From an uncultured Chthoniobacterales bacterium (lineage in GTDB: Bacteria > Verrucomicrobiota > Verrucomicrobiia > Chthoniobacterales > JAATET01), in NCBI GenBank assembly GCA_964247025.1, contig CAXTSM010000004.1:3042-67041 (forward strand): DNA of 64,000 bases, given 5' to 3'. Position 1 is the stretch's first letter; the number at the start of each line of letters is the position of its first letter. Shown one piece after another: positions 6,371 through 53,871 of this stretch. The notes under the pieces are model-generated. The model had not been told where the DNA came from. It ran no database searches and saw nothing but the letters and a program-made list of their open reading frames with translations. Position numbers and translations under genes: made by a program.

Positions 6371-6470
6371 TTCGCGACCCTATCGATCGCGGCAATAATG
6401 GCAAACCGTTCGACTCCCGCGCGATTTTCGTGTATGGGAGTCGCCGGGTCCCGTCTCCGCGGGAAAAATC

Positions 6471-6872
6471 ATGAACAACCTCCGGCAACATCTGATCGGC
6501 GTCACGCTCGTTGTTTGCGGCCTGGCTCTCTCGACCGCCCAGGCAACCCCGAACGATATCTTGCGCAAACGGGTCGCGTTTTTGACCAATCAACTCGTCC
6601 ACCTCCCGGCTCGCCGATCAGCGCCGGCCCACGTTTCGCAGCTGGTGCTGAAGCTGTCCCAACTCGCGCCCCAGTACGCGAACTCCTATTTCCGTTGGGG
6701 CATCAGCAAGTTGCCGTATCGGGAATATAACGACAACCAGACGCAAATGGCGAACAAGACCATCTCGATCGTGAACGCATCGATCCTGCTCGGGAAAAAG
6801 AAATCGCAAATCATCGTGCAGATCCAGTATGCCGTGAAGCGGAGCGCCGTTCCGCCGCCCTATCAGGCCTGA
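6471..6872 (+). CDS. small basic secreted protein ending PPPYQA (paralog of 10048..10494)
   Basis: signal peptide with AQA cleavage site; colinear similarity to 10048..10494. Confidence 0.8.
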   Translation: MNNLRQHLIGVTLVVCGLALSTAQATPNDILRKRVAFLTNQLVHLPARRSAPAHVSQLVLKLSQLAPQYANSYFRWGISKLPYREYNDNQTQMANKTISIVNASILLGKKKSQIIVQIQYAVKRSAVPPPYQA

Positions 6873-6936
6873 GCGCCCGACCGGCTTCGGTGCAGGATCG
6901 GCGGGGCGGATGCCCTTGGCGGCCGACGGCGCAATG

Positions 6937-7008
6937 GCCCCCGTAGTTCAACGGATAGAACGGAGGTTTCCTAAACCTTAAATCCGGGTTCGATTCCCGG
7001 CGGGGGCA
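6937..7008 (+). tRNA. tRNA-Arg (anticodon CCT)
   Basis: acceptor GCCCCCG/CGGGGGC, D arm GTTC..GAAC, anticodon loop TTCCTAA, T arm GGTTCGATTCC, discriminator A; CCA not encoded. Confidence 0.95.
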
Positions 7009-7129
7009 TCGCCTTCATGCCGCGACCGGCGCGATCGCCGGGGAAAAGCGCCCTCGTCTGGCGGGCACCACCGGATCGACGGCAGGTTTGCTTGCGTCGA
7101 AGACGGACATCACGTTCTCATGGCCTTTC

Positions 7130-7729
7130 GTGAGCACGCCGGAAAATATCCATCCCCAGTTCCATCGATTTCTTGCTTCCGAGGACAAGGGGCGATTGCT
7201 CGGGCAAAGGGGCGTGGTCGCCTGGCTCGTCGGGCTCTCGGGATCCGGCAAGTCGACCATTGCGGCTGCCACCGAGCGGGCACTGCACGGCGAAGGCCGC
7301 TTCACCGTCATTCTCGACGGGGACAATTTGCGGTCCGGGCTGAATTCCGATCTGAAATTCTCGGACGAGGATCGGCGGGAAAACATCCGGCGAGTGGCGG
7401 AAGTGGCCCGACTCTTCTCGGAGCAGGGAATCATCACGCTGGTGTCGCTGATCACGCCGCGGGAGGAATTCCGCGGCGCGGCGAAGCGGATCGTCGGTCC
7501 GGCCTACGTGGAGGTTTACGTGAAGGCGCCCTTCGAGCTTTGCGCGCAACGCGATCCCAAGGGTCTTTACAAAAAAGCGGCGGCGGGCGCGATCGCGCAT
7601 TTCACCGGACGCGACAGTGGCTTCGAGGAGCCGATTTCGCCGAATCTTGTGCTGGACACCGCCACCGCCTCCGTGGAGGAATGCACGGCTCATTTGGTCG
7701 CCATTTTGCGCAACCGTTTCGCGGTTTAG
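7130..7729 (+). CDS. cysC: adenylyl-sulfate kinase
   Basis: GLSGSGKST, LDGDNLR, RRENIRR, RDPKGLY, FTG..S.FE.P; start (GTG 7130) uncertain. Confidence 0.93.
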   Translation: MSTPENIHPQFHRFLASEDKGRLLGQRGVVAWLVGLSGSGKSTIAAATERALHGEGRFTVILDGDNLRSGLNSDLKFSDEDRRENIRRVAEVARLFSEQGIITLVSLITPREEFRGAAKRIVGPAYVEVYVKAPFELCAQRDPKGLYKKAAAGAIAHFTGRDSGFEEPISPNLVLDTATASVEECTAHLVAILRNRFAV

Positions 7730-7760
7730 ACCGCGAGCTCCGCGCCGTGACCCCATCCGT

Positions 7761-8666
7761 ATGCCCGATTATAATCTCAGCCACCTTGCGCAGCTCGAAG
7801 CCGAGGCCATCTATGTGCTTCGCGAGACGGCCGCCCAATTCCACCGGCCCGCGCTTCTTTTTTCGGGCGGGAAGGATTCCATCCTGATGGCGCACCTTGC
7901 GCGCAAGGCCTTCTGGCCCGCACGAGTTCCCTTTCCGCTCGTGCATGTCGACACCGGGCATAATTTTCCCGAGACGATCGCCTACCGTGATGAATACGTT
8001 TCCGCGCTCGGGGCGGAACTGATCGTGGGCTCGGTGCAGGCGTCCATCGATGCCGGGCGCGTCGTCGAGGAAAAGGGACCGAACGCCTCCCGCAACAAAC
8101 TCCAGACCGTCACGCTGCTGGACACCATCGAGGCCCACCAATACGACGCCTGCCTCGGCGGCGGACGACGGGACGAAGAGAAGGCCCGCGCCAAGGAAAG
8201 GTTCTTTTCCCACCGGGACGAGTTCGGCCAATGGGACCCGAAGAACCAGCGGCCCGAGTTGTGGAATCTCTTCAACGGCCGCCGTCAGCAGGGCGAGCAT
8301 TTCCGCGTGTTTCCACTTTCCAACTTCACCGAAATGGACGTGTGGCTTTACATCCAGCAGGAAAAGATTCCGCTGCCGAGCCTCTACTTTTCCCACGCGC
8401 GCGATGTTTTCCTCCGCGGGGGAAGTCTGCTCGCCGTGACGGACTTCGTGACCGTCCAGCCGGGAGAGACCGTGGAGCGGAAGACCGTGCGCTTCCGCAC
8501 CATCGGCGACGCGACGTGCACCGGCGCCGTCGAGTCCGTCGCGGCCACGCTCGATGACATCATCGAAGAGGTCGCGGCCTCGCGCCAGACGGAGCGGGGC
8601 ACCCGCACCGACGACAAACGCTCCGAGACCGCCATGGAGGACCGCAAGCGCGAGGGTTATTTCTGA
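7761..8666 (+). CDS. cysD: sulfate adenylyltransferase subunit 2
   Basis: LFSGGKDS, HVDTG, RRDEEKARAKER, WDPKNQRPELW, ends KREGYF. Confidence 0.97.
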   Translation: MPDYNLSHLAQLEAEAIYVLRETAAQFHRPALLFSGGKDSILMAHLARKAFWPARVPFPLVHVDTGHNFPETIAYRDEYVSALGAELIVGSVQASIDAGRVVEEKGPNASRNKLQTVTLLDTIEAHQYDACLGGGRRDEEKARAKERFFSHRDEFGQWDPKNQRPELWNLFNGRRQQGEHFRVFPLSNFTEMDVWLYIQQEKIPLPSLYFSHARDVFLRGGSLLAVTDFVTVQPGETVERKTVRFRTIGDATCTGAVESVAATLDDIIEEVAASRQTERGTRTDDKRSETAMEDRKREGYF

Positions 8667-9913
8667 TGGACATTCTTCGTTTCACGACCGCCGGCTCCGT
8701 CGATGACGGGAAATCCACGCTGATCGGGCGCCTTCTTTACGATTCGAAGAGCATCTTCGAGGACCAGCTCGTCGCGATGGAGGAAAGCTCGCGACGCCGT
8801 GGCGACGCCGTCGTCAACCTCGCGTTGCTGACGGATGGGTTGAAGGCCGAGCGCGAGCAGGGCATCACGATCGACGTCGCCTACCGATACTTTGCGACGC
8901 CGCGCCGCAAATTCATCATCGCGGATACGCCGGGTCACATCCAATACACCCGCAACATGGTCACGGGCGCCTCCACGGCGAACCTCGCGATCATTCTCGT
9001 GGACGCCCGCAAGGGCGTGATCGAGCAGACGAAGCGCCATTCGTTCATTGCGGACCTGCTTCGCATCCAGCACGTCGTGGTGGCCGTGAACAAGATGGAT
9101 CTCGTCGATTACGACCAGGCCGTCTACGACCGGATCGTCGAAGAATACAAGGCCTTCGCATCGCGGCTCGATAACCTCATCGACATCACGACCATCCCGA
9201 TCAGCGCATTGAACGGCGACAACGTCGTCGATAAATCCAGCGCGATGCCCTGGTATCAGGGTCCCTCCCTCTTGTACCATCTCGAGACGGTCTACGTCGG
9301 CGGCGAACACAATCACGTCGACGCCCGTTTTCCGGTGCAATGGGTCATTCGACCGCAATCGAACGACTGGCACGACTTCCGCGGCTATGCGGGCCGGGTG
9401 GCCGGCGGCGTGTTCAAGCCAGGCGACGACGTCACCGTCCTGCCGTCCGGCTTCACGACGCAAATCAAGGAGATCCACGCCGACGCCGGCACGCGGGCCG
9501 AGGCCTTCGCCCCCCAGTCCGTGACGCTGACCCTCGCGCACGAGATCGACGTCTCGCGCGGAGACATGATCGTCAAGGTAAACAATCCGCCCATTGTTTC
9601 GCAGGACATCGAGGCGATGATCTGCTGGTTTTCCCAGACGCCGATGGCCGAGCGCGGAAAGTATCTTCTCCGCCACACCACGCGCGAAACGCAGGCCGTC
9701 ATCAAGGAAATCCGCTATCTTGTCGACATCAATACCCTTCACAAGGTGGAGGGCCCGCGCTCCTGTTCCCTCAACGATATCGGCCGCATCACCCTCCGCA
9801 CGGCCGTTCCGTTGATCCACGACGCGTATCGCCGCAATCGGATCACCGGCTCCTTCATTCTCGTGCACCGGGGGACCAACGAAACCGTCGCGGCGGGAAT
9901 GATCTGGCAATGA
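8666..9913 (+). CDS. cysN: sulfate adenylyltransferase subunit 1 (GTPase)
   Basis: GSVDDGKST, EREQGITIDVAY, DTPGH, NKMD. Confidence 0.97.
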   Translation: MDILRFTTAGSVDDGKSTLIGRLLYDSKSIFEDQLVAMEESSRRRGDAVVNLALLTDGLKAEREQGITIDVAYRYFATPRRKFIIADTPGHIQYTRNMVTGASTANLAIILVDARKGVIEQTKRHSFIADLLRIQHVVVAVNKMDLVDYDQAVYDRIVEEYKAFASRLDNLIDITTIPISALNGDNVVDKSSAMPWYQGPSLLYHLETVYVGGEHNHVDARFPVQWVIRPQSNDWHDFRGYAGRVAGGVFKPGDDVTVLPSGFTTQIKEIHADAGTRAEAFAPQSVTLTLAHEIDVSRGDMIVKVNNPPIVSQDIEAMICWFSQTPMAERGKYLLRHTTRETQAVIKEIRYLVDINTLHKVEGPRSCSLNDIGRITLRTAVPLIHDAYRRNRITGSFILVHRGTNETVAAGMIWQ

Positions 9914-9972
9914 ACTCGAACGAGTTCGCGCCTCATCATCCGGAGCGTTGATTTCCGGAAAAAACTGTTGAC

Positions 9973-9989
9973 TTGGTATGATTGAAGCT
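9973..9989 (+). promoter_or_regulatory. candidate sigma54 -24/-12 promoter for the 10048 gene
   Basis: TTGGTATGATTGAAGCT: GG-N10-GC spacing but AAGC instead of TTGC; predicted +1 near 10000 coincides with a GCAA-tetraloop hairpin (10000-10025). Confidence 0.4.
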
Positions 9990-10047
9990 TTATCCCCTAC
10001 CGAAGCGGGGCAACCTGCGACTCGGAAAAAACATAACAACTAATCTC

Positions 10048-10494
10048 ATGTTCAAAAAAATTGCATCCATCCTCACGGTCGGAGTCGCTGCCTTGGTCAT
10101 TGCGGCCCCCACCAGCGTTTACGCGCTCACCCCCGCGCAGACAAAGGCAAAAATCGCAGCCTTGAAAAGGCAGCTCGTCGCCCTTCCGCTTCACAAGGCT
10201 CCTTTTGCGAAGGTCAACAGCCTGGTCCTCCAGTTGGTCACTCTCGATGCGAAAGGCGCTTCCAATTACCTCGGGCTTGGCCTTCCAAAAATCGCGACGG
10301 TGAACGCGAAGAAAAATGCCGCCACGCTCACGAGCGCGGTGAACAAGAAGGTTCAATCCAACAAAACGCTTACGACGAGCGTCAAGAAATCGATCATTTC
10401 GAAAAACACGACGCTGCTGAAGAAATACGTCCCACCAGGACCTAACAATCCTCCTTACCAAGCGATGCTTAGCGTGAGCCGAGTGGTTGCCTAA
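10048..10494 (+). CDS. Lys-rich secreted protein with PPYQA motif near C-terminus
   Basis: signal peptide MFKKIASILTVGVAALVIAAPTSVYA; A-rich leader; own terminator; paralog of 6471..6872. Confidence 0.85.
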   Translation: MFKKIASILTVGVAALVIAAPTSVYALTPAQTKAKIAALKRQLVALPLHKAPFAKVNSLVLQLVTLDAKGASNYLGLGLPKIATVNAKKNAATLTSAVNKKVQSNKTLTTSVKKSIISKNTTLLKKYVPPGPNNPPYQAMLSVSRVVA

Positions 10495-10510: not shown

Positions 10511-10543
10511 AAGGGCGGACTCCCAGCGAGTCCGCCCTTTTTG
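10511..10543 (+). terminator. intrinsic terminator
   Basis: AAGGGCGGACTC-CCAGC-GAGTCCGCCCTT followed by T run. Confidence 0.85.
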
Positions 10544-10627: not shown

Positions 10628-11224
10628 ATGGGACGTTTTTTAATTTACGCGGCTTTTGGGATCCTGCTTGCGGCCTGCACTTCGGTGGTGGAGAAAGTCG
10701 TCCCCGTCGAGGGCTCGACCGAGGTTGATTCGAATAATTACAAGCTTTCCGCCAACGACAACGTCACGATCTCTGTTTTCCAGGAGCAGGACATGACGAC
10801 GCAGCAACAGATTTCCCGCGATGGTTCCGTCAGTATTCCCTTGATTGGGCGGGTTGTCATCGGAGGTCTGACGATGGGGGAAGCCGAGGCAAAAATCTCC
10901 CGGACGTTGTCCACGAACTTTCTGGTCAATCCCCAGGTCTCGGTGGTCGTGACCCAATACGCTCCGCAAAACTACACGATTTTGGGGCAGGTGAATGCTC
11001 CGAACGCTTATCCGATCCCGGCGGACGAGCCGGTTTTCACCCTTCCGATGGCAATCGCCCGGGCAAGCGGCAATACCCGGATCGGAAACCTCCGGAACAT
11101 AAAAATAAACCGCCGCCACGGCAACGCGATGTCACAATTCACGGTCAACATGCTTAGCCCCGAAGGACAGCAGTTTGTTATCAAGCGCGGGGATCTCATT
11201 ACCGTGCAGGAAACGCTATTTTAA
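10628..11224 (+). CDS. wza: polysaccharide export lipoprotein (OPX/Wza family)
   Basis: lipobox LLAAC; Y.L...D.V.I.VF, DG.VSIPLIGRV..GGLT, PQVSV, LGQVNAP, SLBB-type end GDLITV.E. Confidence 0.88.
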   Translation: MGRFLIYAAFGILLAACTSVVEKVVPVEGSTEVDSNNYKLSANDNVTISVFQEQDMTTQQQISRDGSVSIPLIGRVVIGGLTMGEAEAKISRTLSTNFLVNPQVSVVVTQYAPQNYTILGQVNAPNAYPIPADEPVFTLPMAIARASGNTRIGNLRNIKINRRHGNAMSQFTVNMLSPEGQQFVIKRGDLITVQETLF

Positions 11225-13416
11225 TGTTAAACTCAGATCCCGTGGGCGACTTTCAACCTCCCGGCCACCCGTCGGCCGCCCCGGAGGGCGAGACCAAGGC
11301 GTTTTCAATCGATTATCGCCGCCTTTGGGAAACCGCCAAAAAATATTTTTGGCTGATCATTCTTTACGTGATCGCCGGAATTATTGCGGCGGTTGTTTAT
11401 CTAAGTAACGCCACGCCCATTTACCGCTCGACGGCGCGCATCAAAATCGAACAACGGGTCATGGATGCCACGCCCATGGCCGGCGGCGGGATCGAGGAGG
11501 ACCTGCGCGGACTGGAGATGATGCAGACCATTCAACTCGGTTTCATCAGCCGGTCGTTGATGCAGCGCATGGTTCAGAGATTGAACCTCAAAAACCGCGC
11601 CGATTTCACCAAATCGACGTTTTTGGAGGGAAGTTCCGATGATGAATTGTTCACGATCTATCTTTCGAGCAATTCGCAATCGGAATTGATCCAAGGCACT
11701 CGCTTATTGACGATTTCGTTCGATCACCCCGATCAGCATGTCGCCCAGGAAATGACCGATAGTCTGATCAGGGAATTCGTCGCCTTGGAAGGCGAGCAAC
11801 GTCTGGCGGCGGCAAGTGTCAATCTAAGCTATCTCATCGAGGAGAAGAAATCGCTGGAGGAGAAGCTAAGGCGCTCCCGCCAAGGGCTTATTGATTATAC
11901 CCGAAAGCTCGGAAGCGTGAGCGTTTCCGTCGACGGGCAGACAAACATCGTCGCCAGTAAATTGATCGAGTTGAACACGCGCCTGGGAGTTGCGACCGCG
12001 GAAAGGCTGAAATTACAAACCGACAACGATCAGATCAATAAATATCGAGACGATCCAAAAAGGCTTCTTCAGATCGCGAGTGTATCGCAGCTGCCGGAGA
12101 TCATCAATCTCCGAAGCCAGTTGAATAGCTTGGACGCAGATTTGAGCAAAGCCCGGAAACGATACAACCCCAAGGCCCCGGCGCTGGAGGCATTGGAAAG
12201 CCAGAAAATGTCCCTGCAGAAGGCGCTGGAGGCCGAAGCCTTGCAGGCCCCGGAAACCGTCGATAGGACCTATCAATCTGCCGTCGAAACCGAGCGCGCT
12301 TTGCAAAAAGCGACCGATGAGCAGGAAAAGCAGGTCATCGAAAACAAAGCGCAATCGATCGAATCCGACAAACTTCAAGGGGAAATCGATGCGGATAACA
12401 TGGCCTACCAGGCGGTTCTCAAAAAACTCAACGAAGAAACGGCCCAGGCGAGGAGCCAGCCGGTCTTCATTCAAGTGGTTGACTCGGCCGGACCTGCCTT
12501 TCAGGTGGCTCCGAAAAAGATCCAAGTCCTGGCGATCGCCATCTTTCTTTCCGTGGCGGCTTCCGGGTTGACGATTGTCATCCTGTCCAGCCTGGATACG
12601 TCCTTCAAGTCGGTGGACGAGCTCGAGGCGGTGATCGGGTTGCAGGTTTTGGCCTCGGTGCCGCAATACGAGATAAAAACCTCCAAGAAGTCGTCGGGAA
12701 ACAATCGAGACCAGATGAACGTGGCGCTCCCCCTGATCGACGACCCTTATTCCGCGGCCAGCGAAGCCTACCGCACCCTTCGGGCCTCGCTTTTGCTTTT
12801 GGAAGACGAGAAGCACAGCATCCTTGTGACGAGCGCCGTTCCGGAAGAAGGCAAATCCACGACATCGCTGAGCCTGGCTGTTTCCATGGCTCAACGCGGC
12901 GCGAAGACCTTGCTCATCGAGTTCGACCTTCGTAAACCGGTCTTGGAAAACCGTCTCTTCGGCCGACAGACTCACCTGGGAGCGGCTGATTTTTTGAACG
13001 ATCAAGCCGATTTCGATAGCCTGATTCAAGCGACGTCGATCCCGAATCTCAGTGTCATTACGGCTGGCAAGGTGACCAAGAGTTCGGGGGAGCTGTTGCT
13101 TCGCCGACACAAGGTGGAGAAGTTTTTGGAATCGGCCCGCGCTCAATTCGAGCAGGTGATCGTGGATTCCGCGCCGCTTCTCGCGGTGAGTGATACGTTG
13201 ACGATCGCGCGGCACTTCAAGGTGATCACGATGGTCGTCAGGTCCCACAAGACCGCCCGGCGGCTCGTCCGCCGTTCCGTTGATCTTTTGAAGCGCGTCA
13301 AGAGAATGCCGGCCGGGATTACGCTAAGCATGGTTCCGCCGGGCAACGCGTATTATTATTATGGTTATAGCGACGGCGGGAGAGCTTATGGCGCGGAACG
13401 CCAGCCGGTGGACTAA
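11224..13416 (+). CDS. wzc: polysaccharide co-polymerase / BY tyrosine kinase
   Basis: two TM segments flanking coiled coil; EAYRTLR, SAVPEEGKST, DLRKP, VDSAP, C-terminal YYYYGY cluster. Confidence 0.92.
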   Translation: MLNSDPVGDFQPPGHPSAAPEGETKAFSIDYRRLWETAKKYFWLIILYVIAGIIAAVVYLSNATPIYRSTARIKIEQRVMDATPMAGGGIEEDLRGLEMMQTIQLGFISRSLMQRMVQRLNLKNRADFTKSTFLEGSSDDELFTIYLSSNSQSELIQGTRLLTISFDHPDQHVAQEMTDSLIREFVALEGEQRLAAASVNLSYLIEEKKSLEEKLRRSRQGLIDYTRKLGSVSVSVDGQTNIVASKLIELNTRLGVATAERLKLQTDNDQINKYRDDPKRLLQIASVSQLPEIINLRSQLNSLDADLSKARKRYNPKAPALEALESQKMSLQKALEAEALQAPETVDRTYQSAVETERALQKATDEQEKQVIENKAQSIESDKLQGEIDADNMAYQAVLKKLNEETAQARSQPVFIQVVDSAGPAFQVAPKKIQVLAIAIFLSVAASGLTIVILSSLDTSFKSVDELEAVIGLQVLASVPQYEIKTSKKSSGNNRDQMNVALPLIDDPYSAASEAYRTLRASLLLLEDEKHSILVTSAVPEEGKSTTSLSLAVSMAQRGAKTLLIEFDLRKPVLENRLFGRQTHLGAADFLNDQADFDSLIQATSIPNLSVITAGKVTKSSGELLLRRHKVEKFLESARAQFEQVIVDSAPLLAVSDTLTIARHFKVITMVVRSHKTARRLVRRSVDLLKRVKRMPAGITLSMVPPGNAYYYYGYSDGGRAYGAERQPVD

Positions 13417-13427
13417 TTAGCCGTTTC

Positions 13428-14885
13428 TCACGGGGGCGGCTCCTCTCGTCTTCCGGTGGAACCGATATAGCTCCACCCAAGGGCGAGAAACACGAGGAAA
13501 TAAAGCTGTAAAGAGGCTATTTGCATCGGAAAATCGACCATGGAATGCAGAGAAGTTAGAACGACCGAGACGAACGCTGGAATGGCGATCCAAGGTTCTC
13601 GACTCGACGGGACATTGTTAAAGAAGGCTTTGACATGGTCGAGAAAGCCGATGCGATAACCTTCGAACTCCTGGGACGGTTTTTCCGAGTCCCGGCGGCT
13701 CCCGCGAAGGAGAGAGATCCCCGGGGGAATCATGACGGCGGCCCATAATATCGTTCCGGCGTAACCCCACTCCACGAGGGTCTGAATCAAATCCTGGTGG
13801 GCTGCCCAATAGGATTGAGTGCGGAGCTTGGGATCGTCTTCGACGTAGCGGAAGTAGTAGCGCTTGAAAGATCCGGGACCGAAGCCGATCCATCCGGAAT
13901 CCGGCAGAATTTTCAGAAAACTCAGGTAGGCGTGCGTCCGTCCGTCATTGGGTTGATGAACGGTCGCCGCAAGATAGTTCCATCGCTTCCAGGGGAGGGC
14001 GAACGGAAGGGAGATCGCTACCACGAGAATCGGAATGATGGCCGCGAGCACGTAGGTGGAACTCAACTTCCGCCGGAAGCGCTTCATTTCAGAACGACAG
14101 AGAGGCGCCATCATCACCATAAGTAAGACGATGCCAATGGCGGCGAGCACGTTTCCCGCCTTTGAAACGTTGAGAAAACTGGCCACGAATACCGCGGTAA
14201 AGGGAATCATCCACAACGGCCAAGCCGGGCGCTGGCGAACGACGGTGAATAGGGCGATGGCTGCGGTGACCGGCCAGAAGAGGTTGAGATAAGCTCCCGC
14301 GTTTCCCCAATATCGATAGGTCGCGAATGAAAGGTCGGTGGTCCCATTCTCGGCTTTGAGAATAAAAATCCCTCCGACAATCCGCTGGAGGAAGAAAAAG
14401 ATCACCATGCCAAAGGAGGAAAAGACCATCGTCAGAAGCAGGCGCCGGGACCACTTCGGATCGCGCCATATTTCCACGGCGATAAGCATTGCTCCTAACA
14501 GCGCGGTGGTCCGCAGCATCGCCGGCAACGAGAGGCCGACGTCGTAGGCGCTGCAGTTAAGAAGAAGCCAGGCGCGAAATCCGTCGTCCCATCCTTGCAA
14601 GCGACCCTCGGTCACGGCCGCATCCACCATCGCCATGATGGTGACAAACCATCCGTAGACGAGCACCGCCGACGAGGTCAACCAAGGAAAGATTCCGGTT
14701 CCGGGCATTTGTCCTCGAGCGACGTGGGCCACCAGCCAAAGGAGGAACGTGCCTCCCATGACCCAGATGAACTGGCTGATGGTGGATTCACGCGTCAGTC
14801 CATAAGCAACGGCCGCCCACACATATAAGGCGAGAAATAGTCCGTAGCTTGAACTCAAAAGGATATTTCCCCACTTCTCGCGCAT
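13428..14885 (-). CDS. O-antigen ligase / O-oligosaccharyltransferase family membrane protein
   Basis: multi-TM; GFGPGSF, AHQDLIQTLVEWG, LHSMVDFP motifs. Confidence 0.75.
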   Translation of the reverse strand: MREKWGNILLSSSYGLFLALYVWAAVAYGLTRESTISQFIWVMGGTFLLWLVAHVARGQMPGTGIFPWLTSSAVLVYGWFVTIMAMVDAAVTEGRLQGWDDGFRAWLLLNCSAYDVGLSLPAMLRTTALLGAMLIAVEIWRDPKWSRRLLLTMVFSSFGMVIFFFLQRIVGGIFILKAENGTTDLSFATYRYWGNAGAYLNLFWPVTAAIALFTVVRQRPAWPLWMIPFTAVFVASFLNVSKAGNVLAAIGIVLLMVMMAPLCRSEMKRFRRKLSSTYVLAAIIPILVVAISLPFALPWKRWNYLAATVHQPNDGRTHAYLSFLKILPDSGWIGFGPGSFKRYYFRYVEDDPKLRTQSYWAAHQDLIQTLVEWGYAGTILWAAVMIPPGISLLRGSRRDSEKPSQEFEGYRIGFLDHVKAFFNNVPSSREPWIAIPAFVSVVLTSLHSMVDFPMQIASLQLYFLVFLALGWSYIGSTGRREEPPP

Positions 14886-15012: not shown

Positions 15013-17022
15013 ATGACTACCGACGTTCCGCAGCCTTCATCGCCGAAAACCGGCTTTCTTCGAAAAGTGCTCGAACGGTATCGATGGGTCAGCCGTCGTA
15101 ATAAAATCGCCTTTTTTAGCTTAGTCTTTGTCATCTCGGCGGTCGCGATCTCATCCCGATGGATCCAGCCGGCTTACCGGACGACAAAGATGTGGCTTTT
15201 CCTCAATATCGCGGAGAAAGCCATCGCAAAAAAAGATTACAATTCGGCCTCGCTCGCTTTTCGAAAGGCGCTTCTTTCCGGCTACGAGAATCCGGCGAGT
15301 TGGAAGGCATTGGCAAATTTTCTGGAGAAAATCGATTCGGCGGAAATCATCGGAGTCTGGAAACGACTCGAAAATCTGGAGCCAGACAATAGATCGTATG
15401 GTTTCAAACAAGTAAGGGCAGCTCTGAAATACAATCGCTTGTATCAGGCGGAGGAGATTCTGGTCGGGTTACCATCGGGCTGGCGGGACGACCCGGAATA
15501 TCTGCGACTTCAAGCGGACATTTTCACGCAGAAAAAGTTCGCCGCGGACGCGGAGAAAAGCTTGCGGCGTCTGCTTGCCCTTCAGCCCGATGACAAGGAG
15601 GTGCAGTTCCAATTACTCTCCGTGCAGGCGCAGCTCGAAGATCTTTCCGTGCAGATCAAGGCAAGATCGAAGTTGAAAGAGATCGGAGAGGGGAAATCGG
15701 AATTTGCCACCCAGGCGCTGAGATCGTCCATCGGCTTCGAATCCGCCTCGGAGAATCTCTACGAGGCGGATCGCCTCGCGGCGAAATTGATCCTGCGGCC
15801 GGATGCCACGGTGGCGGATCGGCTTTTGCACGCGCAACTCGAACTGAAGACCGACAGCATCTCCCAGGCAAAATCTCAGGCCGATTTGCGGGCTTACGCG
15901 GCAAACCATCCGGAAGCCTTCCCGGACATCCTGCAATGGCTGATGTCAAGCCAGATCGATCCACCGGCCACCGACCGATGGGTGGAATCGCTTCCCTCTT
16001 CCTTGACATCGAAACCGAACATCCAGGCGTCGCTGTTTCAATTTTACTTGTCGATCGGGAAATTGGACCGCGCTCGCAAGATTCTCGAGGATCCCAAATC
16101 GCCGGTTTACCTGCCGCCCAAAGTTTTGGATCTGGCGTTCAAGGCCTTGGAGGAAGACCGGAACGCCCTTGCTTCCGCCGAACAGACATGGATGCAAGCC
16201 ATTTACGCCACGGAAGGAAAAGCTTCCTTGCTGAGAGTCCTTGCCTTTCTGGCCAGTTCGCGAGATTGGACCGGTGCGACGGGACGCGCCCTCGTCGCTT
16301 GTGCGGATGCCGCTCCCTGGGACGGTTCGGCCTGGAGGCTGTTGATTCAGCATGAAAACGCCGTGCGAAATCTTCCGGGTCTCTACACTGCCCTGCAGGG
16401 ATTGATGCGCCTGAATCCCTACGATGTGAATGTCGCCAGCAACTGGGCGCTCGCGGCGGCGTTGGTCCGCCCCAGCAACATCGAGGAGGTGCTCGATATC
16501 GCCAAACGCACATACTATTCCACCTACCCCTCCGATCCGCGAGCGGCCACGGCCTATGCGATCGCTTTATTGCGGGTGGGACGGACCCAGGAAGCGAACG
16601 ATATCGTCACAAACATGTCGTTGGCGGATCGCCGGGAGCCCCAACGTGCCATCTACGTTGGCAGCGTCATGGCGGCCAATGGCCATAAAGAAGAGGCGCT
16701 GGATTATTTCAAGCGTTCGGAAGCTCTTCAAAATGCGGCGTTTCCCGAAGAAATCACGCTTCGTCGCATCTGGAAAGGAGTGGCCCTGGGAGAGGAGACG
16801 ACGGCCGAAGAAGCCGCCAAGATTCTTTTGAAGCGCGACGATGTCGACGTTGAGGCGGGCAAGATCAACTCCGAACTCACGACGGAGATGAGGCGGCGAT
16901 CGAATCCGGAAGAAGCGCGCCGAATTCTCGAAAGCCTGCGCTCCGAGGCCGACAGTCGAAAGGTGGTGCCCGTGGAGGTCGAAAATTTAATTCGCCAAGT
17001 GCGCGGCGAACAGAAACCTTGA
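15013..17022 (+). CDS. membrane-anchored TPR protein associated with exosortase locus
   Basis: single N-terminal TM followed by helical TPR-like repeats; directly upstream of exosortase. Confidence 0.7.
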   Translation: MTTDVPQPSSPKTGFLRKVLERYRWVSRRNKIAFFSLVFVISAVAISSRWIQPAYRTTKMWLFLNIAEKAIAKKDYNSASLAFRKALLSGYENPASWKALANFLEKIDSAEIIGVWKRLENLEPDNRSYGFKQVRAALKYNRLYQAEEILVGLPSGWRDDPEYLRLQADIFTQKKFAADAEKSLRRLLALQPDDKEVQFQLLSVQAQLEDLSVQIKARSKLKEIGEGKSEFATQALRSSIGFESASENLYEADRLAAKLILRPDATVADRLLHAQLELKTDSISQAKSQADLRAYAANHPEAFPDILQWLMSSQIDPPATDRWVESLPSSLTSKPNIQASLFQFYLSIGKLDRARKILEDPKSPVYLPPKVLDLAFKALEEDRNALASAEQTWMQAIYATEGKASLLRVLAFLASSRDWTGATGRALVACADAAPWDGSAWRLLIQHENAVRNLPGLYTALQGLMRLNPYDVNVASNWALAAALVRPSNIEEVLDIAKRTYYSTYPSDPRAATAYAIALLRVGRTQEANDIVTNMSLADRREPQRAIYVGSVMAANGHKEEALDYFKRSEALQNAAFPEEITLRRIWKGVALGEETTAEEAAKILLKRDDVDVEAGKINSELTTEMRRRSNPEEARRILESLRSEADSRKVVPVEVENLIRQVRGEQKP

Positions 17023-17029
17023 AGGCGCT

Positions 17030-17944
17030 TTGAACGCCGATTCCTCCCTCGCTTCCCCGGTCGCGCCGGTGAGAGCATCCTCGACGGCGGACCGCATCGA
17101 GGCGATCGCCCTGGTTCTTGCGGCGCTCGTTTGGCTGCCGACGCTGTATCGCTGCAGCATCGAGTGGTCCGTGAACGCTCAATACTATTTCGGGTGGTCG
17201 GTGCCGATGCTGGCGGCCTATCTCGCGTATGAACGACTAGGGCAAGGTCTGCCCTCCCGACCCGGCCGCTGGCAATGGGTGGCCATCATGGCGATCGTCG
17301 TCTTCGCGCTTCCTGAGCCGGCGTTTCGGCTGGTGGGCGAGGCGAATAGCGACTGGCGGCTGGTCTCGTGGTTCATGGCGATCTCCGCGGCGGGGATCTC
17401 GTTCTCGTTCTACTACCTGGCCGGAGGGACGGCGTGCGTGCGCCGGTTCATTTTCCCGACGTTGTTCCTTGTGACGGCGATCCCCTGGCCCACGTCGATG
17501 GAAACTTTTTTGGTCCAGGGCATGATGCGTCTCAATGCGGAGATCGCCGCGGAATTTGTCAGCCTGTGCGGAGTGCCGGCCATTGCCCAAGGGAACGTCA
17601 TTGAGCTTCCCACCGGGATGCTTGGGGTCAACGAGGCGTGCAGTGGCATCCGCTCGCTGCAGTCCACGCTGATGGCTTCGATTTTTCTGGGGGGACTTTA
17701 CCAGTTGTCGCCGGCCGCCCGCGTCGTCCTCGTCGGTCTCGGGGTGGGGATCGCCTTCTTTTTGAACATCGTGCGCACCATCTTCCTGAGCTGGCAGGGG
17801 GCTTTTCACGGAATCGAGGCCACGGAAAAGTGGCATGACTCGGCCGGCTTTGCGATTCTTGGCGTCGTTCTGGTGTGCCTCTGGCTCATCGGGCGCTATT
17901 TCGAGCGGCGAGCCACCCGGCCGGCCCCCCGCCCGGCGGCCTAG
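17030..17944 (+). CDS. exosortase (EpsH/Xrt family)
   Basis: multi-TM; catalytic triad motifs EACSGIRS (Cys), NIVR (Arg), WHD (His); start codon uncertain. Confidence 0.9.
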   Translation: MNADSSLASPVAPVRASSTADRIEAIALVLAALVWLPTLYRCSIEWSVNAQYYFGWSVPMLAAYLAYERLGQGLPSRPGRWQWVAIMAIVVFALPEPAFRLVGEANSDWRLVSWFMAISAAGISFSFYYLAGGTACVRRFIFPTLFLVTAIPWPTSMETFLVQGMMRLNAEIAAEFVSLCGVPAIAQGNVIELPTGMLGVNEACSGIRSLQSTLMASIFLGGLYQLSPAARVVLVGLGVGIAFFLNIVRTIFLSWQGAFHGIEATEKWHDSAGFAILGVVLVCLWLIGRYFERRATRPAPRPAA

Positions 17945-21576: not shown

Positions 21577-21660
21577 ATCGGACTTGGCTCGGAGAGAGCG
21601 ACCGCGGCGCCGGGCTTGGAGCGCGCGCCCGGATCGAAAAGGGCATTCCGATCACTTTTT

Positions 21661-22443
21661 ATGAAGGTCATCATCCTATGCGGAGGGAAAGGCACGCGCT
21701 TGCGTGAAGAAACGGAATTCAGGCCCAAGCCCATGGTGCCGATCGGCAATCGCCCGATCCTTTGGCACATCATGAAAACCTACGCGCACCACGGGCACAA
21801 GGAGTTCATTCTCTGCCTTGGCTACAAAGGCGAGATGATCAAGGACTACTTCCGAAACTATCTCTGGAATACGTGCGACACGACCATGTTGCTCGGACGC
21901 ACCCCGGCGGTGCAATTTCACAACCGTCACGACGAGGAGGACTGGAGCGTCACCCTCGCGGATACCGGGGAGGATTCCATGACCGCCTACCGCATCCGCC
22001 AGGTCGAAAAATATCTCGGGCGGGACGAGGAATTTCTTCTGACTTACGGGGACGGGGTTGGCAGCGTCGACATTCCGGCCAGCATCGAGCACCACCGGAA
22101 GACCGGGAAAACCTGCACGCTCACGGCGGTTCATCCGCCGGGGCGCTTTGGCGAATTAGGCATCGACTCGGATACGACGATCCACGGATTCAACGAAAAA
22201 CCCCAGACCGAGAGCGGCTACATCAACGGAGGCTACATGGTCTGCCGCCGCGCTCTGTTCAACTATCTGCCTGACGATCCGCGCATGATGCTCGAGCAGG
22301 AGCCGATGAAGAGGCTCACCGAAGCCGGCGAATTGGCCGCTTTCAAGCACGACGAGTTCTGGCAGCCGATGGACACGTTTCAGGAATTCACGATGCTGAA
22401 CAAACTATGGGAAGCCGGGGAGGCGCCGTGGAAAGTATGGTAG
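21661..22443 (+). CDS. rfbF: glucose-1-phosphate cytidylyltransferase
   Basis: GGKGTRL, PKPMV, TYGDG, INGGY, FWQPMDT, APWKVW. Confidence 0.93.
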   Translation: MKVIILCGGKGTRLREETEFRPKPMVPIGNRPILWHIMKTYAHHGHKEFILCLGYKGEMIKDYFRNYLWNTCDTTMLLGRTPAVQFHNRHDEEDWSVTLADTGEDSMTAYRIRQVEKYLGRDEEFLLTYGDGVGSVDIPASIEHHRKTGKTCTLTAVHPPGRFGELGIDSDTTIHGFNEKPQTESGYINGGYMVCRRALFNYLPDDPRMMLEQEPMKRLTEAGELAAFKHDEFWQPMDTFQEFTMLNKLWEAGEAPWKVW

Positions 22444-23600
22444 CCGCGCCCCGTTCGCTCCGGAATTCCTTCGGGGGCGTCTACGCGGGAAAGCGCGTCC
22501 TGATCACCGGTCACACCGGCTTCAAGGGCTCCTGGCTTTCCGAGTGGCTGCTGGCCCTGGGCGCGGAGGTGACCGGGCTGGCGCTCGAGCCGGCCACGAC
22601 CCCGGCATTGTTCGACCAACTTGGGTTGTCCGACCGCATGCGGCACGTCGCGGGAGACGTGCGCGAGGAGAAAACCGTCCGCCATGTGCTCGGGGAAACC
22701 GCGCCGGATTTTGTGTTCCATCTCGCGGCTCAGCCGCTCGTGCGCCTCTCCTACGACATTCCGGTCGAGACCTACGCGACGAACGTCATGGGAACCGTCC
22801 ATGTGATGGACGCGCTTCGGCACTTTGCGTCGAGATCGCCGGCTCCCGTGATCGCGGTGATGATCACCACCGACAAATGTTACGAGAACCGGGAGTGGGT
22901 TCACAGCTATCGGGAGGAGGATCCCATGGGTGGTCACGACCCCTACAGCTCGAGCAAGGGAGCCGCCGAGATCGCCATCGCCGCTTATCGACGTTCTTAT
23001 TTTTCCGCGGCGGATACCCGGGTGCATCTGGCTTCGGTCCGCGCGGGCAACGTGATCGGGGGCGGCGACTGGGCGCTGGATCGCATCGTTCCCGACTGCA
23101 TCAAGGCGCTCGAGGCGAAGCAACCCATCCCCGTTCGCAATAAGATCGCCACGCGGCCCTGGCAGCACGTGCTCGAGCCGCTCAGCGGCTATCTGACCGT
23201 GGCGGCCGCTCTCGCCGGGGCGGAGGACGTTCCCTTTCCTCTTCCCGCTTATTGTTCCGCCTTCAACTTCGGCCCCAATCTTTCTTCCAATCGCACGGTG
23301 CGTGATCTCGTGCGAGAGATCCTTCGGCACTGGCCCGGCGAGTGGAGCGACCAAAGCGATCCGCACGCCCTCCACGAAGCGAAGTTGCTCAATCTCGCCA
23401 CGGACAAAGCCTTCCACTATCTTGGCTGGAAGCCGGCGTGGACGTTCGAGGAGACAATCGGCGAGACCGTCGCGTGGTATCGAGCGTCCCTTCAGTGCCG
23501 CCAGCCGGTCGATTTCCAGACGCTCACGCTTCGTCAGATCGCCGAATATACCGCCCGCGCCCGGGAGCTCCGGATCGCCTGGGCCGGTTCTTCGGTTTAG
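22437..23600 (+). CDS. rfbG: CDP-glucose 4,6-dehydratase
   Basis: TGHTGFKGSW, AAQPLV, TTDKCY, YSSSK, RAGNVIGGGDW, RPWQHV. Confidence 0.94.
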   Translation: MVAAPRSLRNSFGGVYAGKRVLITGHTGFKGSWLSEWLLALGAEVTGLALEPATTPALFDQLGLSDRMRHVAGDVREEKTVRHVLGETAPDFVFHLAAQPLVRLSYDIPVETYATNVMGTVHVMDALRHFASRSPAPVIAVMITTDKCYENREWVHSYREEDPMGGHDPYSSSKGAAEIAIAAYRRSYFSAADTRVHLASVRAGNVIGGGDWALDRIVPDCIKALEAKQPIPVRNKIATRPWQHVLEPLSGYLTVAAALAGAEDVPFPLPAYCSAFNFGPNLSSNRTVRDLVREILRHWPGEWSDQSDPHALHEAKLLNLATDKAFHYLGWKPAWTFEETIGETVAWYRASLQCRQPVDFQTLTLRQIAEYTARARELRIAWAGSSV

Positions 23601-23627
23601 CCCCCCGTTTCCCTCGGTTCCCAAATC

Positions 23628-25145
23628 ATGATCGCATCCGAAATCAAATCCGAAATTCTCCGCCTCACCCGCGAATATTCCGCCGCGATGCACGCGGCCA
23701 ATCGTCCCGGCAATGATCCCGACCGCGCTTCGTTCGTCCCGGGCGAGTCGCTCGTGCCTTACGCTGGCCGGGTCTTCACCCCCGACGAGGTCGAGGCGGC
23801 GGTCGGCTCCACCCTCGATTTCTGGCTGACGCTCGGGCCCGAGGGGGAAGCCTTCGAAAAGGAACTCGCCGAGTTGCTGGGGGTCAAATATTCGCTTCTC
23901 GTCAACTCCGGATCGTCCGCCAACCTCGTCGCGCTCTCCGCGCTGACCACGCACAAGCTGCCCGGGCACAAGCGGATCCAGCCCGGCGACGAGGTCATCA
24001 CCGTCGCGGCCGGATTCCCGACCACGGTGGCCCCCATCATCCAACAAGGCGCCATCCCCGTTTTCCTCGACAACGATCCCGCCACCGGCAATGCCCGGCT
24101 CGACCAGCTCGAGGCGGTCTTCGTGCCGGGCAAGACCAAGGCCGTGATGATGGCCCATACGCTGGGGAATCCCTTCGATCTCGGCGCGGTTCTCGCCTTT
24201 TGCCAGAAGCACGATCTCTGGCTGATCGAGGACAATTGCGACGCGCTTGGCTGCACCTACGCCATGCCCGTCGAGCAGGCGAGATTCCTCGGGCTCGACC
24301 ACCTTTTCAAGATCGCCGAAGCCGGCGGCCACGCGTTCATCCGGATCGAAGACGGTCTTCTCGTCGCGCCCACCGGCACGTGGGGCGACATCAGCACGCA
24401 ATCCTTCTACCCGCCGCACCATCTCACGATGGGCGAGGGCGGCGCCGTCAGCATCATCCGGCGGCCGCCGCTCAAGACCTACGCCGAGAGCTTCCGCGAT
24501 TGGGGCCGCGATTGCTGGTGCCCGAGCGGCAAGGACAACACCTGCAACAAGCGCTTCGGCTGGCAGCTCGGCGAGCTTCCCCAGGGCTACGACCACAAAT
24601 ACATCTACAGCCATCTCGGCTACAACTTGAAGCCACTGGATCCCCAGGCCGCCATCGGCCGGCAGCAGCTGAAGAAACTTCCCGCCTTCATCGAGGCGCG
24701 CAAGCAGAATTGGGAGACGCTTCGTCGCGGCCTCGCCGATCTCGAGGATGTCTTCGAGTTCAGCCTGCCGACGCACGCCACGGGTTGGAGCGCCGACGGC
24801 GGCTTCGCCTGGGACGACACGGGATGCCGCACCGATTGCTCGTGGTTCGGCTTCATGCTGCGGGTTCGACCGGGCGCGCCTTTCTCCCACACCGATCTCG
24901 GCCGCCATCTCGACGAAAAAAAGATCGGCAACCGCATGCTCTTCGGAGGCAATCTCCTCAAGCAGCCGGTCTTCGTGCAGCTCAAGAAAGACCGCCCGGA
25001 CGCGATCCGCACGCCGCTGGGCGAATATCCCGGCGCCGACGAGATCATGAACAGCGCGCTGTTTCTAGGCACCTATCCCGGCCTCACGCCGGCGATGCTG
25101 GCCTACGAGATCGAGATGATCCACGCGTTCGTAGAGAGTTTCTGA
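23628..25145 (+). CDS. rfbH: CDP-4-keto-6-deoxyglucose 3-dehydrase (E1)
   Basis: NSGSSANL, EDNCDA, PPHHLTMGEGG (His at the aminotransferase Lys position), CWC..GKDNTC Fe-S motif, YDHKY. Confidence 0.92.
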   Translation: MIASEIKSEILRLTREYSAAMHAANRPGNDPDRASFVPGESLVPYAGRVFTPDEVEAAVGSTLDFWLTLGPEGEAFEKELAELLGVKYSLLVNSGSSANLVALSALTTHKLPGHKRIQPGDEVITVAAGFPTTVAPIIQQGAIPVFLDNDPATGNARLDQLEAVFVPGKTKAVMMAHTLGNPFDLGAVLAFCQKHDLWLIEDNCDALGCTYAMPVEQARFLGLDHLFKIAEAGGHAFIRIEDGLLVAPTGTWGDISTQSFYPPHHLTMGEGGAVSIIRRPPLKTYAESFRDWGRDCWCPSGKDNTCNKRFGWQLGELPQGYDHKYIYSHLGYNLKPLDPQAAIGRQQLKKLPAFIEARKQNWETLRRGLADLEDVFEFSLPTHATGWSADGGFAWDDTGCRTDCSWFGFMLRVRPGAPFSHTDLGRHLDEKKIGNRMLFGGNLLKQPVFVQLKKDRPDAIRTPLGEYPGADEIMNSALFLGTYPGLTPAMLAYEIEMIHAFVESF

Positions 25146-49744: not shown

Positions 49745-51247
49745 CTAAAATTTATAGTTGAAGCGAAGTCCGCAGGTGTTGATTGCATAGCCGGTTCCCG
49801 CGATCTCGGAGGTCCGTTGCTGTCGGAGATAATAAAAATCCACCCCGATTTGATCCCTCCAGAATGTGTATGTCAATGTCGGCCCGGCGGAAATGTAGGT
49901 TTCCGTATGTTCTTCCGTGTTGCCCGAGACGTCGCCTTGGTAATCCAGATATTGAAGGCCGGCGCCGAACTTGAAGCTCAGGTTTCGGAGGATTTGCCAA
50001 CCGCCGTTCAAGGCGATCGACGTGGTCGTGTAGGTGAGGCCGCGCACGATGTCGGTGACCTCCACGCTCCGCGCGAGCGCGAGCTCGAACGTGAGCAGCT
50101 GAGTGGGCGTCCAGGTGGCGGAAAGATTGAAGATCGGCGTCGTGAAATCCTGGGCGCCGGCGAAAGTTTCCCCGTGAAATTGCCGCGCTTGAACGCCGAG
50201 CGAACCATCCAACTTCAGCTTGCGCATCGTGTCGTAGCTAAACCCGACGGTGAGGCCCTGAAAAGTCTGGGTCGCTCCCTGGCCCACATCCACCAGACCG
50301 ACGTAAGGACCCGCGAAAATCGTCGTTTTCGGGCTGAAAGCGTAACCGATCTGCGGAGAGAGCGAATAGGTCGTGTAATTCTGCCCGCTTTCGTAGTTCT
50401 GATTGGTGACGCCGACCGCGGCGCTGGCGAACGTCTTGGCTCCCAGATAATACACGTTATTCCAAGTGAAGGTCGTAATCTGGTAGCTCTGCCGGCCGGA
50501 TTGCGTCGCGTTGGGTTCGTTGTTGTTGACGTAATCCAGCCTGACGTCGGTCGAGTAGCGGGAAAACGTCGCCTTTCCGCTGACGTGCAGTTCCTGATTC
50601 ACGCGTGACTGGTCGGAATTCTCGAGGAAGTACTGAAACTGAGGCAGATATTGGAACGAAAGATAATCCTCCGTCTGGGCCTGAAAATCCCCCACGCCGA
50701 AAAGGAACTTCGGGGTGATCCGGGTGATGAGGTCCGTCACCGGATTGACGGGCGATGCGAAAATGTTGTCGTTGTATTCCTCGCTCATCGAGAGTTCGAT
50801 TCGGAGATTGACCGGACCGGCCCGAAACTTCAGCCCGTCGCGTTCGAACAGCGGCCGATCGTAGTAGTCGAAGCTCGGCAGAAACTGTCGCTGCGCGGCC
50901 GGGACGCCCGCGGAATCCACCGTTCCAGCCGATGGGTCGACCGTGGCCGGACCAAATTCAGTGGTTGCGGTCGGGCGGGCGACCGAATCGGTTTCGACTC
51001 CCGGCGACGGGATTCCCGTTCCGACCCCCTCGGGACGGGGAGTGGTGATTTTCTGGGCGGCCGAAGTCGCGTGATCCGGGGAAGAATCGTTCCATGCGGG
51101 CTGCTCCGGGCCGGGGTCGTCCGGCTGCGCCCGCCCGAGGTTCGTGGCGCCGACGAGCAGGGCAAGGACGGCGACCGGAGGACGAAGGTCAATGCCGCGG
51201 AGACGCCCGCCCCAGATTTGCCCGCCCGTTTTATCAGGACCCCTCAC
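49745..51247 (-). CDS. outer-membrane beta-barrel protein of EPS loci
   Basis: signal peptide, Pro-rich N-terminus, YNDNIF, alternating aromatic strands, C-terminal NYKF; start uncertain. Confidence 0.75.
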   Translation of the reverse strand: MRGPDKTGGQIWGGRLRGIDLRPPVAVLALLVGATNLGRAQPDDPGPEQPAWNDSSPDHATSAAQKITTPRPEGVGTGIPSPGVETDSVARPTATTEFGPATVDPSAGTVDSAGVPAAQRQFLPSFDYYDRPLFERDGLKFRAGPVNLRIELSMSEEYNDNIFASPVNPVTDLITRITPKFLFGVGDFQAQTEDYLSFQYLPQFQYFLENSDQSRVNQELHVSGKATFSRYSTDVRLDYVNNNEPNATQSGRQSYQITTFTWNNVYYLGAKTFASAAVGVTNQNYESGQNYTTYSLSPQIGYAFSPKTTIFAGPYVGLVDVGQGATQTFQGLTVGFSYDTMRKLKLDGSLGVQARQFHGETFAGAQDFTTPIFNLSATWTPTQLLTFELALARSVEVTDIVRGLTYTTTSIALNGGWQILRNLSFKFGAGLQYLDYQGDVSGNTEEHTETYISAGPTLTYTFWRDQIGVDFYYLRQQRTSEIAGTGYAINTCGLRFNYKF

Positions 51248-51268: not shown

Positions 51269-51886
51269 CTACTCGGGGAGTTGTTCGCCGTTCTTGAATT
51301 TCACGACGCGCACCTCGGCGGTCTTTTCATCGTAAATTTTCCACGGACCATCCATGTCGCCCGCCACGTAGATTCCCTCGGACTCGGTTTTGCCGTTCTC
51401 GAAGTAAGTCGTCCATTTTCCCACGGGGCTCGCGTCGCTGTAGCTGCCGACGCTTTGCAAAGCCCCGTTTTCGAACCAATATTTCCACGGTCCGACCTCC
51501 TTGCCATCGCGGTATTCTCCATCCGAGGCCGTTTTTCCGTCCTCGTAGTATTCGATCCAATGCCCGTCGCGCACGCCGTTCTTGAGGAGGCCGCTGAGTT
51601 CCTTTTTGCCGCTATCGTAATTCGAAAAAACCGGTCCGCTGTAGGGCTTCTGCGTCCCGACGGCATAGAAAACATCGAGGTCTTCGTTGTAATCCAAGGA
51701 ATATAATTCCACCGGACGGACGGCGGCGGCGGCGGCGGTCGAAGCCGACGAAACGGCGGGGGCGTCACCCGGGATCGGGGCGGACGACGGGACCGGCGAG
51801 GCGGACGGAGCCGGTGCCGGGGTATCGGCGGCGATAAGGGGCAGCGCGACGACGAAGAGCAGATTGAGAACGAAACGAAATTTCAT
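51269..51886 (-). CDS. secreted MORN-variant repeat protein (YwqK-like)
   Basis: signal peptide; repeated G.W..YYE.G.....G.Y..G units. Confidence 0.8.
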   Translation of the reverse strand: MKFRFVLNLLFVVALPLIAADTPAPAPSASPVPSSAPIPGDAPAVSSASTAAAAAVRPVELYSLDYNEDLDVFYAVGTQKPYSGPVFSNYDSGKKELSGLLKNGVRDGHWIEYYEDGKTASDGEYRDGKEVGPWKYWFENGALQSVGSYSDASPVGKWTTYFENGKTESEGIYVAGDMDGPWKIYDEKTAEVRVVKFKNGEQLPE

Positions 51887-53547: not shown

Positions 53548-53758
53548 CATGTCCGGCTGGCGCTCTTTTGGTCGCCTCGGTGCCCAATCGTTCGAGGTGG
53601 CTGATCGAGCGGTTGAAAGTCACGCCACTCTTCAATCTTGAACTCGTTCTCGAATGATTCCGCAAATGGTTTGCTATAAACAAGATAACTTTTCGCGAGG
53701 AGCGACGGCCTTTTGAACTTCTCCCTAGATGGCAGAAATGTCACCGAACACCGCTGGA

Positions 53759-53775
53759 TTGGCATTGCGGCTGCT
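53759..53775 (+). promoter_or_regulatory. sigma54 -24/-12 promoter
   Basis: TTGGCATTGCGGCTGCT upstream of PEP-CTERM gene. Confidence 0.75.
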
Positions 53776-53791
53776 CTATCCTGGTTGGAAA

Positions 53792-53836
53792 GCCTGTTAC
53801 CGCCACAGGCACTTTGTCGGGGGGGATCTGATGAGG
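53792..53836 (+). repeat. conserved leader motif, copy 2
   Basis: GCCTGT-TACCGCC-ACAGGC hairpin then GTCGGGGGGGATCTGATGAGG; matches 52654..52703. Confidence 0.7.
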
Positions 53837-53871
53837 CATGCACAGGCGGGCAAAACTCAATCACATACAAA

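Follow-up and report, generated by a model that had tools for sequence, protein, structure and literature searches.

Background

PEP-CTERM proteins, the substrates of exosortase (EpsH), are defined by a PEP motif, a helix and a basic cluster (PMC1569441), and such proteins are also dealt with in PMC4960237. In the group 4 capsule operon of E. coli the small first protein, GfcA, is proposed to carry polysaccharide, receiving an O-antigen modification and passing to a barrel (PMC8592465), while the Wzy_C enzymes TfpO and TfpM glycosylate the C-terminal Ser/Thr of pilins (PMC9829042). In photosystem II, CtpA, a PDZ protease of the Tsp/Prc kind, cleaves the D1 protein behind Ala344, with nine residues being lost in spinach, and the D1 protein of Euglena has no extension (PMC8909930). 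Here we compare with these systems two paralogous genes, paralog 1 and paralog 2, which encode predicted secreted cationic proteins with a C-terminal PYQA motif and lie in a 64,000 nt stretch (the window, to which all coordinates refer unless another locus is named) of contig CAXTSM010000004.1 from an uncultured Chthoniobacterales bacterium. Both belong to an unnamed, lineage-restricted family that is tightly tied to the head of an exopolysaccharide (EPS) export operon. The reading we tentatively prefer, at slightly short of an even chance, is that this cationic five-helix family heads the wza-wzc operon as a protein of the polysaccharide layer, with its Y-x-A end serving as an anchor-free tag exposed by CtpA/Prc-type trimming.

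Results

A lineage-restricted family of cationic proteins

The two genes and the parts of their products considered here are as follows:

6471..6872, plus strand: paralog 1, a cationic helical protein, predicted to be secreted, with PYQA as its last residues; divergent from trmL, a patchy duplicate
6858..6869, plus strand: PYQA motif of paralog 1, with the stop codon directly after it (translation of the open reading frame)
10048..10494, plus strand: paralog 2, main wza-adjacent copy of 148 aa, with predicted signal peptide, five-helix cationic domain (residues 29-126), Pro linker, PYQA and a nine-residue non-polar extension
10453..10464, plus strand: PYQA motif of paralog 2
10465..10491, plus strand: extension of paralog 2, nine residues, lysine-free with a non-polar end; a predicted pro-tail, from family statistics

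As described in the initial annotation, one protein (paralog 1, 133 aa) ends exactly at its PPPYQA sequence and the other adds nine residues after NPPYQA. Their paralogy is borne out by a full-length BLASTP alignment (41/132 identical residues, 31%, E 4e-9), a recount of the ungapped 48-residue block returned the 18 identities given earlier, and the two are each other's sole matches below E 0.1 (E 2e-5) among 38,134 six-frame open reading frames of the 3.3-Mb genome. Both are strongly cationic, as had been noted: paralog 1 has an isoelectric point of 10.5 (8 Lys, 7 Arg and 3 acidic residues), and the mature chain of paralog 2 one of 10.7 (17 Lys, 2 Arg and 1 Asp). The signal peptides were called by eye and with a crude hydrophobicity rule, and are therefore predicted only.

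Neither protein had a match in Pfam or NCBIfam at E≤0.1. Searching 1.84 billion representatives gave 34 matches at E≤0.001, of which 32 are relatives of 132-191 residues and two (P0015 and P0020) were dropped as long repeat proteins; L014, a partial match inside a 625-aa open reading frame, was dropped as spurious. A profile of 53 sequences matched 15 of the 16 other genomes of the same taxonomic family, whereas in 184 genomes from the order's other families it found only three weak, short partial stretches, which were set aside as spurious. NCBI gives one homolog, from the same genus, the label 'hypothetical protein [Terrimicrobiaceae bacterium]', the Atlas look-up of one homolog gave no usable match, and a related-locus search of genome contigs gave no confirmed relative. 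The literature search, with subscription papers and supplements outside its scope, found nothing pairing 'PYQA' with 'Verrucomicrob' and no title on the family.

The structure prediction proposed in the initial annotation gave a confident domain: the AlphaFold model of paralog 2 (from 26 sequences) has five helices over residues 29-126 with a predicted local distance difference test (pLDDT) score above 90, followed by an unstructured tail (pLDDT ~68) without a fold. The best hit of a VIA-align fold search was to designed helical repeats (Z 9.7, root-mean-square deviation 5.2; the guide value for helical bundles is ~13), and Foldseek returned nothing at E≤0.001 and only generic helical repeats. 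Pfam and NCBIfam thus offer no family and the fold searches no specific match, and the earlier suggestion of a new family stands.

Conservation of the wza-adjacent copy

The genes surrounding the two paralogs, and the more distant barrel gene, are listed below:

6937..7008, plus strand: tRNA-Arg(CCT), between the paralogs
7088..9913, plus strand: cysC, cysD and cysN (sulfate activation), upstream of paralog 2 (synteny)
10511..10539, plus strand: intrinsic terminator in the gap between paralog 2 and wza (folding; comparable hairpin in relatives)
10628..11224, plus strand: short OPX/Wza protein, Poly_export and SLBB domains only (Pfam/NCBIfam scans)
11224..13416, plus strand: Wzc polysaccharide co-polymerase/tyrosine kinase
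13428..14885, minus strand: Wzy_C protein (O-antigen ligase/O-oligosaccharyltransferase family; PF04932, E 1e-9; synteny), candidate attachment enzyme
15013..17022, plus strand: TPR protein, weakly PrsT-like
17030..17944, plus strand: exosortase (EpsH family), likely for PEP-CTERM proteins and not for paralogs 1 and 2
49745..51247, minus strand: BBP2/EpsL-like outer-membrane beta-barrel, single copy, ~39 kb from paralog 2

We compared 20 neighbourhoods of family members, and the order cysD-cysN-gene-wza-wzc was present in 13 of these, from 13 different genomes, with the ligase gene also visible in 11; cysD and cysN were found in all 13 and cysC in 11. Two more genomes have a longer, PYGA-ending protein before wza, which the profile matches weakly in one and not at all in the other, and one remaining genome of the same family is too fragmented for its wza neighbourhood to be read. 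A Y-x-A tail is present in all 16 wza-adjacent proteins (PYQA in 12, PYGA in two, GYQA and NYAA in one each), even though the domains share no more than 25-43% identity with the query. The placement of the second gene directly before wza and its linkage to EPS genes, both proposed in the initial annotation, are therefore tight across relatives, the main copy standing ahead of the export genes in almost all genomes of the taxonomic family. The further idea that both paralogs head an exosortase/EPS locus holds for paralog 2 and fails for paralog 1, which is a patchy duplicate and no fixed part of the operon; its position beside trmL recurs only in G005 and G008 among the neighbourhoods compared. 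Other paralogs adjoin PEP-CTERM genes, dnaJ or unrelated genes.

The terminator annotated after the second gene was confirmed (12-bp stem followed by a T run; z −4.8, 0/200 shuffles), and folding of 14 intergenic regions placed a strong hairpin, in most cases with a T run, after the gene. Because a strong hairpin separates the gene from wza, the paralog 2 gene is probably expressed above wza. The promoter candidate and the 5' hairpin of the same gene did not survive: there was no σ70 match upstream, and the hairpin had a z of only −0.67. Another stable hairpin region (6406-6445, z −2.7) lies upstream of paralog 1, in the divergent intergenic space shared with trmL.

Elsewhere in the locus, G005 has ~5 kb of extra DNA between tRNA-Arg(CCT) and cysC (L051:6770-11790), which suggests an insertion at the tRNA. 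Within the EPS cluster, the window also contains nucleotidyltransferase, 4,6-dehydratase and DegT-family genes (21616-25145), which resemble a CDP-dideoxyhexose pathway.

The PYQA tail and its extension

The 60 family members counted (leaving out P0007 and P0041-P0044, which are duplicates or a fragment, and a truncated open reading frame of G009) comprise 37 with PYQA, 6 with Tyr variants, 12 with SP, TP or P-x-Ser variants, and 5 without a motif. Across 15 tails the Y, Q and A are invariant and the flanks vary. The tail conservation described initially stands, with PYQA (core Y-x-A) rather than PPYQA as the conserved motif. An extension follows the motif in 42 of 59 members examined, and measures 9-11 residues in 40 of the 42. 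Its last residue is A, V or G in 40/42, compared with 28% of the 2,739 called genes of the genome, and its last three residues have a mean hydropathy of +2.2 against a background of −0.5; there is no Lys in 431 extension residues, even though the domains are lysine-rich. Some copies stop exactly at YQA, among them paralog 1 and one wza-adjacent ortholog (G010). The family tail is under selection and is not PEP-CTERM.

A short, non-polar extension after a small residue is also what characterises CtpA/Prc precursors, and the genome has one candidate S41 protease gene (motif match only). Because extensions of fixed length and non-polar character occur alongside copies stopping at YQA, the tail appears to have the anatomy of a C-terminal pro-peptide of the type removed by CtpA/Prc; for the cleavage signal proposed earlier this fixed-length extension provides circumstantial support. 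The likeness to D1 processing extends to the short stretch after Ala, its dispensability in some lineages and the presence of a PDZ protease type (PMC8909930), but D1 is a membrane protein whereas paralog 2 is soluble and predicted to be exported, and its cleavage is predicted.

The extension ends YALA, ILAA, LAIA and VVA resemble the non-polar termini recognised by Tsp. This favours a reading in which the protein is a non-covalent cationic binder of matrix or capsule, its tail combining a flexible Pro linker and a degron of the Tsp/ssrA kind, and in which descent and local structure account for the conservation of PYQA; the confinement of the motif to the PYQA family fits this too. It accounts less well for the invariant Y, Q and A among varying flanks (although the model is unfolded there), for the copies that stop exactly at YQA, and for a P-x-Ser tail kept across domain exchange (see below), and we regard it as rather unlikely.

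Comparison with PEP-CTERM and exosortase

The PYQA proteins share with the PEP-CTERM/exosortase system that they are predicted to be secreted, have a short Pro-containing C-terminal motif, are EPS-linked and occur in Verrucomicrobia (PMC1569441), but differ in lacking the transmembrane helix and basic cluster, and in belonging to a single domain family with one to four copies instead of being many unrelated passengers. The best 17-residue hydropathy in the C-terminal region is 0.89 and 0.25 for the two window proteins, with a family mean of 0.17, and neither these proteins nor the family have a transmembrane helix after the motif by hydropathy, the tail being too short and polar. The extensions end non-polar where a basic cluster would be expected, and the exosortase-signal models of Pfam and NCBIfam matched neither protein. 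Hydropathy and library scans thus agree with the initial annotation that the tail is distinct from PEP-CTERM. A pattern scan of the genome gave 36 PEP-CTERM candidates, ~33 of them canonical, with three in the window and one confirmed weakly by Pfam. The EPS cluster has three canonical PEP-CTERM genes at its distal end (52744-53493, 53713-54657 and 57454-59232).

A role of the exosortase in handling the tail as a non-canonical substrate could be argued from the Pro-rich linker and from the exosortase gene, which is kept in the locus in relatives; the linkage by itself does not speak against such a role, but nothing specific points to it. One genus seemed to lack the gene in the locus, which was rejected: it lies a few genes downstream there, not next to the TPR gene. 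With no transmembrane helix, basic cluster or signal-model match, and ~33 canonical PEP-CTERM proteins to account for the enzyme, exosortase handling of the paralogs, as suggested in the initial annotation, is unlikely, and as an explanation of the tail we consider it highly improbable; the exosortase is probably a bystander.

P-x-Ser tails and a second protein family

A tail-only profile made from 15 PYQA tails gave 17 matches at E<0.02 in 17 family genomes, all of them family tails, and ten weaker matches, of which one was the wza-upstream protein of G011 and the rest were short or unrelated frames. The search for PPYQA-like ends on other proteins, recommended initially, thus found only the family itself in the 17 genomes, and PYQA does not appear to be a signal carried by many passengers.

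The genome encodes one more cationic protein with predicted secretion, its third (G000 C6:6192-6725, minus strand, locus L199:1501-2031; 177 aa), which is lysine-rich with eight helices and represents a second family, present in 12 of the 17 genomes and without a Pfam match. Its members end in Ser in 14/14 and in P-x-Ser in 13/14 cases, compared with a P-x-Ser background of 17/2,739. The core of this family showed no detectable homology to the PYQA-family domain (hhalign probability 6.6%, reversed control 0.7%), although the probability was 88.5% with the signal peptides included. The second family adjoins dnaJ in six genomes; it also adjoins a DAG-kinase-like gene, and has tandem duplicates in some relatives. 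G005 and G008 lack the second family by the search made, and there a PYQA-family paralog ending in PIS or PVS fills the dnaJ-adjacent slot:

L060:578-994: PYQA-family domain with P-x-Ser tail in the dnaJ-adjacent slot
L062:7997-8410: PYQA-family domain with P-x-Ser tail in the dnaJ-adjacent slot

Either the slot has retained its tail type through an exchange of domains, or a very remote homology connects the two families. The occurrence of a P-x-Ser tail on a PYQA-family domain at the second-family locus suggests that the tails are modular.

VSP-like tails upstream of barrels

In the order's other families the gene before wza is usually that of the barrel. Of 19 barrel-wza loci in the order, ten encode a secreted protein ahead of the barrel, and seven of these proteins have an SP motif, for example VSPE, at the end (five strict, two with QSP or NSP). 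Among 30 barrel loci of the phylum, 15 have a same-strand upstream gene, with V/I/M-S/T-P within the last 20 residues in nine products and further in for two (tail motifs read by eye; motif background 56/2,739). The domains of these barrel-upstream proteins differ from the PYQA family and from each other (helical, FecR), and homology of the PYQA domain to the Ala-rich barrel-upstream family was rejected (hhalign 0.3-0.6%). Proteins with a Pro-rich linker and VSP, VTP or MTP upstream of BBP2 barrels were seen at L099, L103, L104, L109, L113, L119-L146, L189, L190, L194 and L195; at L119, L121, L126, L140, L143, L144 and L146 wzc comes immediately after the barrel and there is no intervening wza. 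All four of ten FecR homologs with a barrel next to them end in VSP. FecR-like proteins away from a barrel (L191-L193) end in R-P-Y-[S/Q]-F, which is loosely PYQA-like and may be chance. In the window itself a MORN-repeat secreted protein (51269-51886, minus strand) is encoded directly upstream of the barrel gene, as in several relatives.

These proteins bear on another explanation, namely that the tail stays uncleaved as a peptide that docks onto the TPR protein or onto a composite OPX/beta-barrel exporter, with the secreted protein as an accessory or cargo of the channel. In its favour are the similar tails on unrelated domains directly upstream of barrels in other lineages, the family members with VSP or VTP in place of PYQA (one has VSPYQA), the four FecR homologs, and the Wza encoded here, which is of the short type needing a barrel (PMC9603273). 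The genome shares with that composite translocon a short Poly_export-SLBB OPX and a BBP2 barrel, but the available portion of PMC9603273 describes it without a small upstream protein, and the barrel gene is unlinked here. A held-out set of 20 further barrel loci contained none with a VSP-type gene directly upstream (0/20); the pattern was defined after the first sets had been seen, a single protein family seems to make up 11 of the 15 examples from the phylum, and in the PYQA family the gene stays with wza and the barrel is elsewhere, in disagreement with the adjacent barrel of the initial annotation. We therefore think docking unlikely, and treat the VSP-like tails on barrel-adjacent proteins as suggestive, a lead only.

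Discussion

In the mechanism that we tentatively prefer, maturation by a tail protease, paralog 2 would be exported by Sec, and a CtpA/Prc-type periplasmic protease would remove the 9-11-residue extension by cutting behind the YQA alanine, so that copies without an extension would be born mature. The protein would be an abundant component of the polysaccharide layer, in which its lysine-rich helices would hold an anionic polymer electrostatically, the polymer being possibly sulfated because cysCDN lie upstream. The mature end may then be used by the Wzy_C ligase of the locus or by the export barrel to tether protein and polymer. From sequence, such protease maturation and polymer tethering of paralog 2 are plausible.

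Several observations weigh against this interpretation. The non-polar end could equally be a degradation tag, a recognisable motif is missing from five of the 60 members, and some ten paralogs are located elsewhere than at wza; in the genomes of the PYQA family the barrel gene lies at a distance, and no PYQA was found on unrelated proteins in the 17 family genomes. Family members are kin, and the counts given are not independent. Finally, a model with Ser/Thr as acceptor fails for the PYQA form, as the motif of paralog 1 has no Ser/Thr and the Ser of paralog 2 is confined to the extension. The comparison with TfpO and TfpM acceptors is similarly divided: the P-x-Ser variants and the second family do have a terminal Ser, and the locus does contain a Wzy_C gene, but both window proteins end in Ala and are not pilins, and the ligase of the locus may be either a WaaL or an O-OTase (PMC9829042). 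With GfcA there is a positional analogy only, to a small operon-head protein in a capsule-export operon with a barrel and wza-wzc; GfcA is Thr-rich (30%), whereas paralog 2 combines a discrete motif in its tail with a helical domain that is folded and rich in lysine (PMC8592465).

A broader proposal, which we put forward as speculative and improbable as it stands, is an anchor-free C-terminal tagging system in Verrucomicrobia, in which a Pro linker with PYQA, P-x-Ser, VSP or VTP would be placed on interchangeable secreted domains, matured by a protease and coupled by a Wzy_C ligase or BBP2 barrel, giving protein carriers joined to or exported with the capsule.

Little is established about how Wzx/Wzy polysaccharides are retained at the surface of bacteria that combine a short OPX with a barrel, or about what GfcA and other small operon-head proteins do; the PYQA family is a concrete candidate here. 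It leads to the prediction of a mature YQA end that depends on a tail protease and is independent of exosortase. The natural pattern of domain exchange points to modular tails without a membrane anchor, and if a Wzy_C enzyme acts on PYQA-type tails, this would represent a new type of sequon. Should the anchor-free tagging system prove true, it would constitute both a new class of sorting signal and a mechanism of capsule anchoring.

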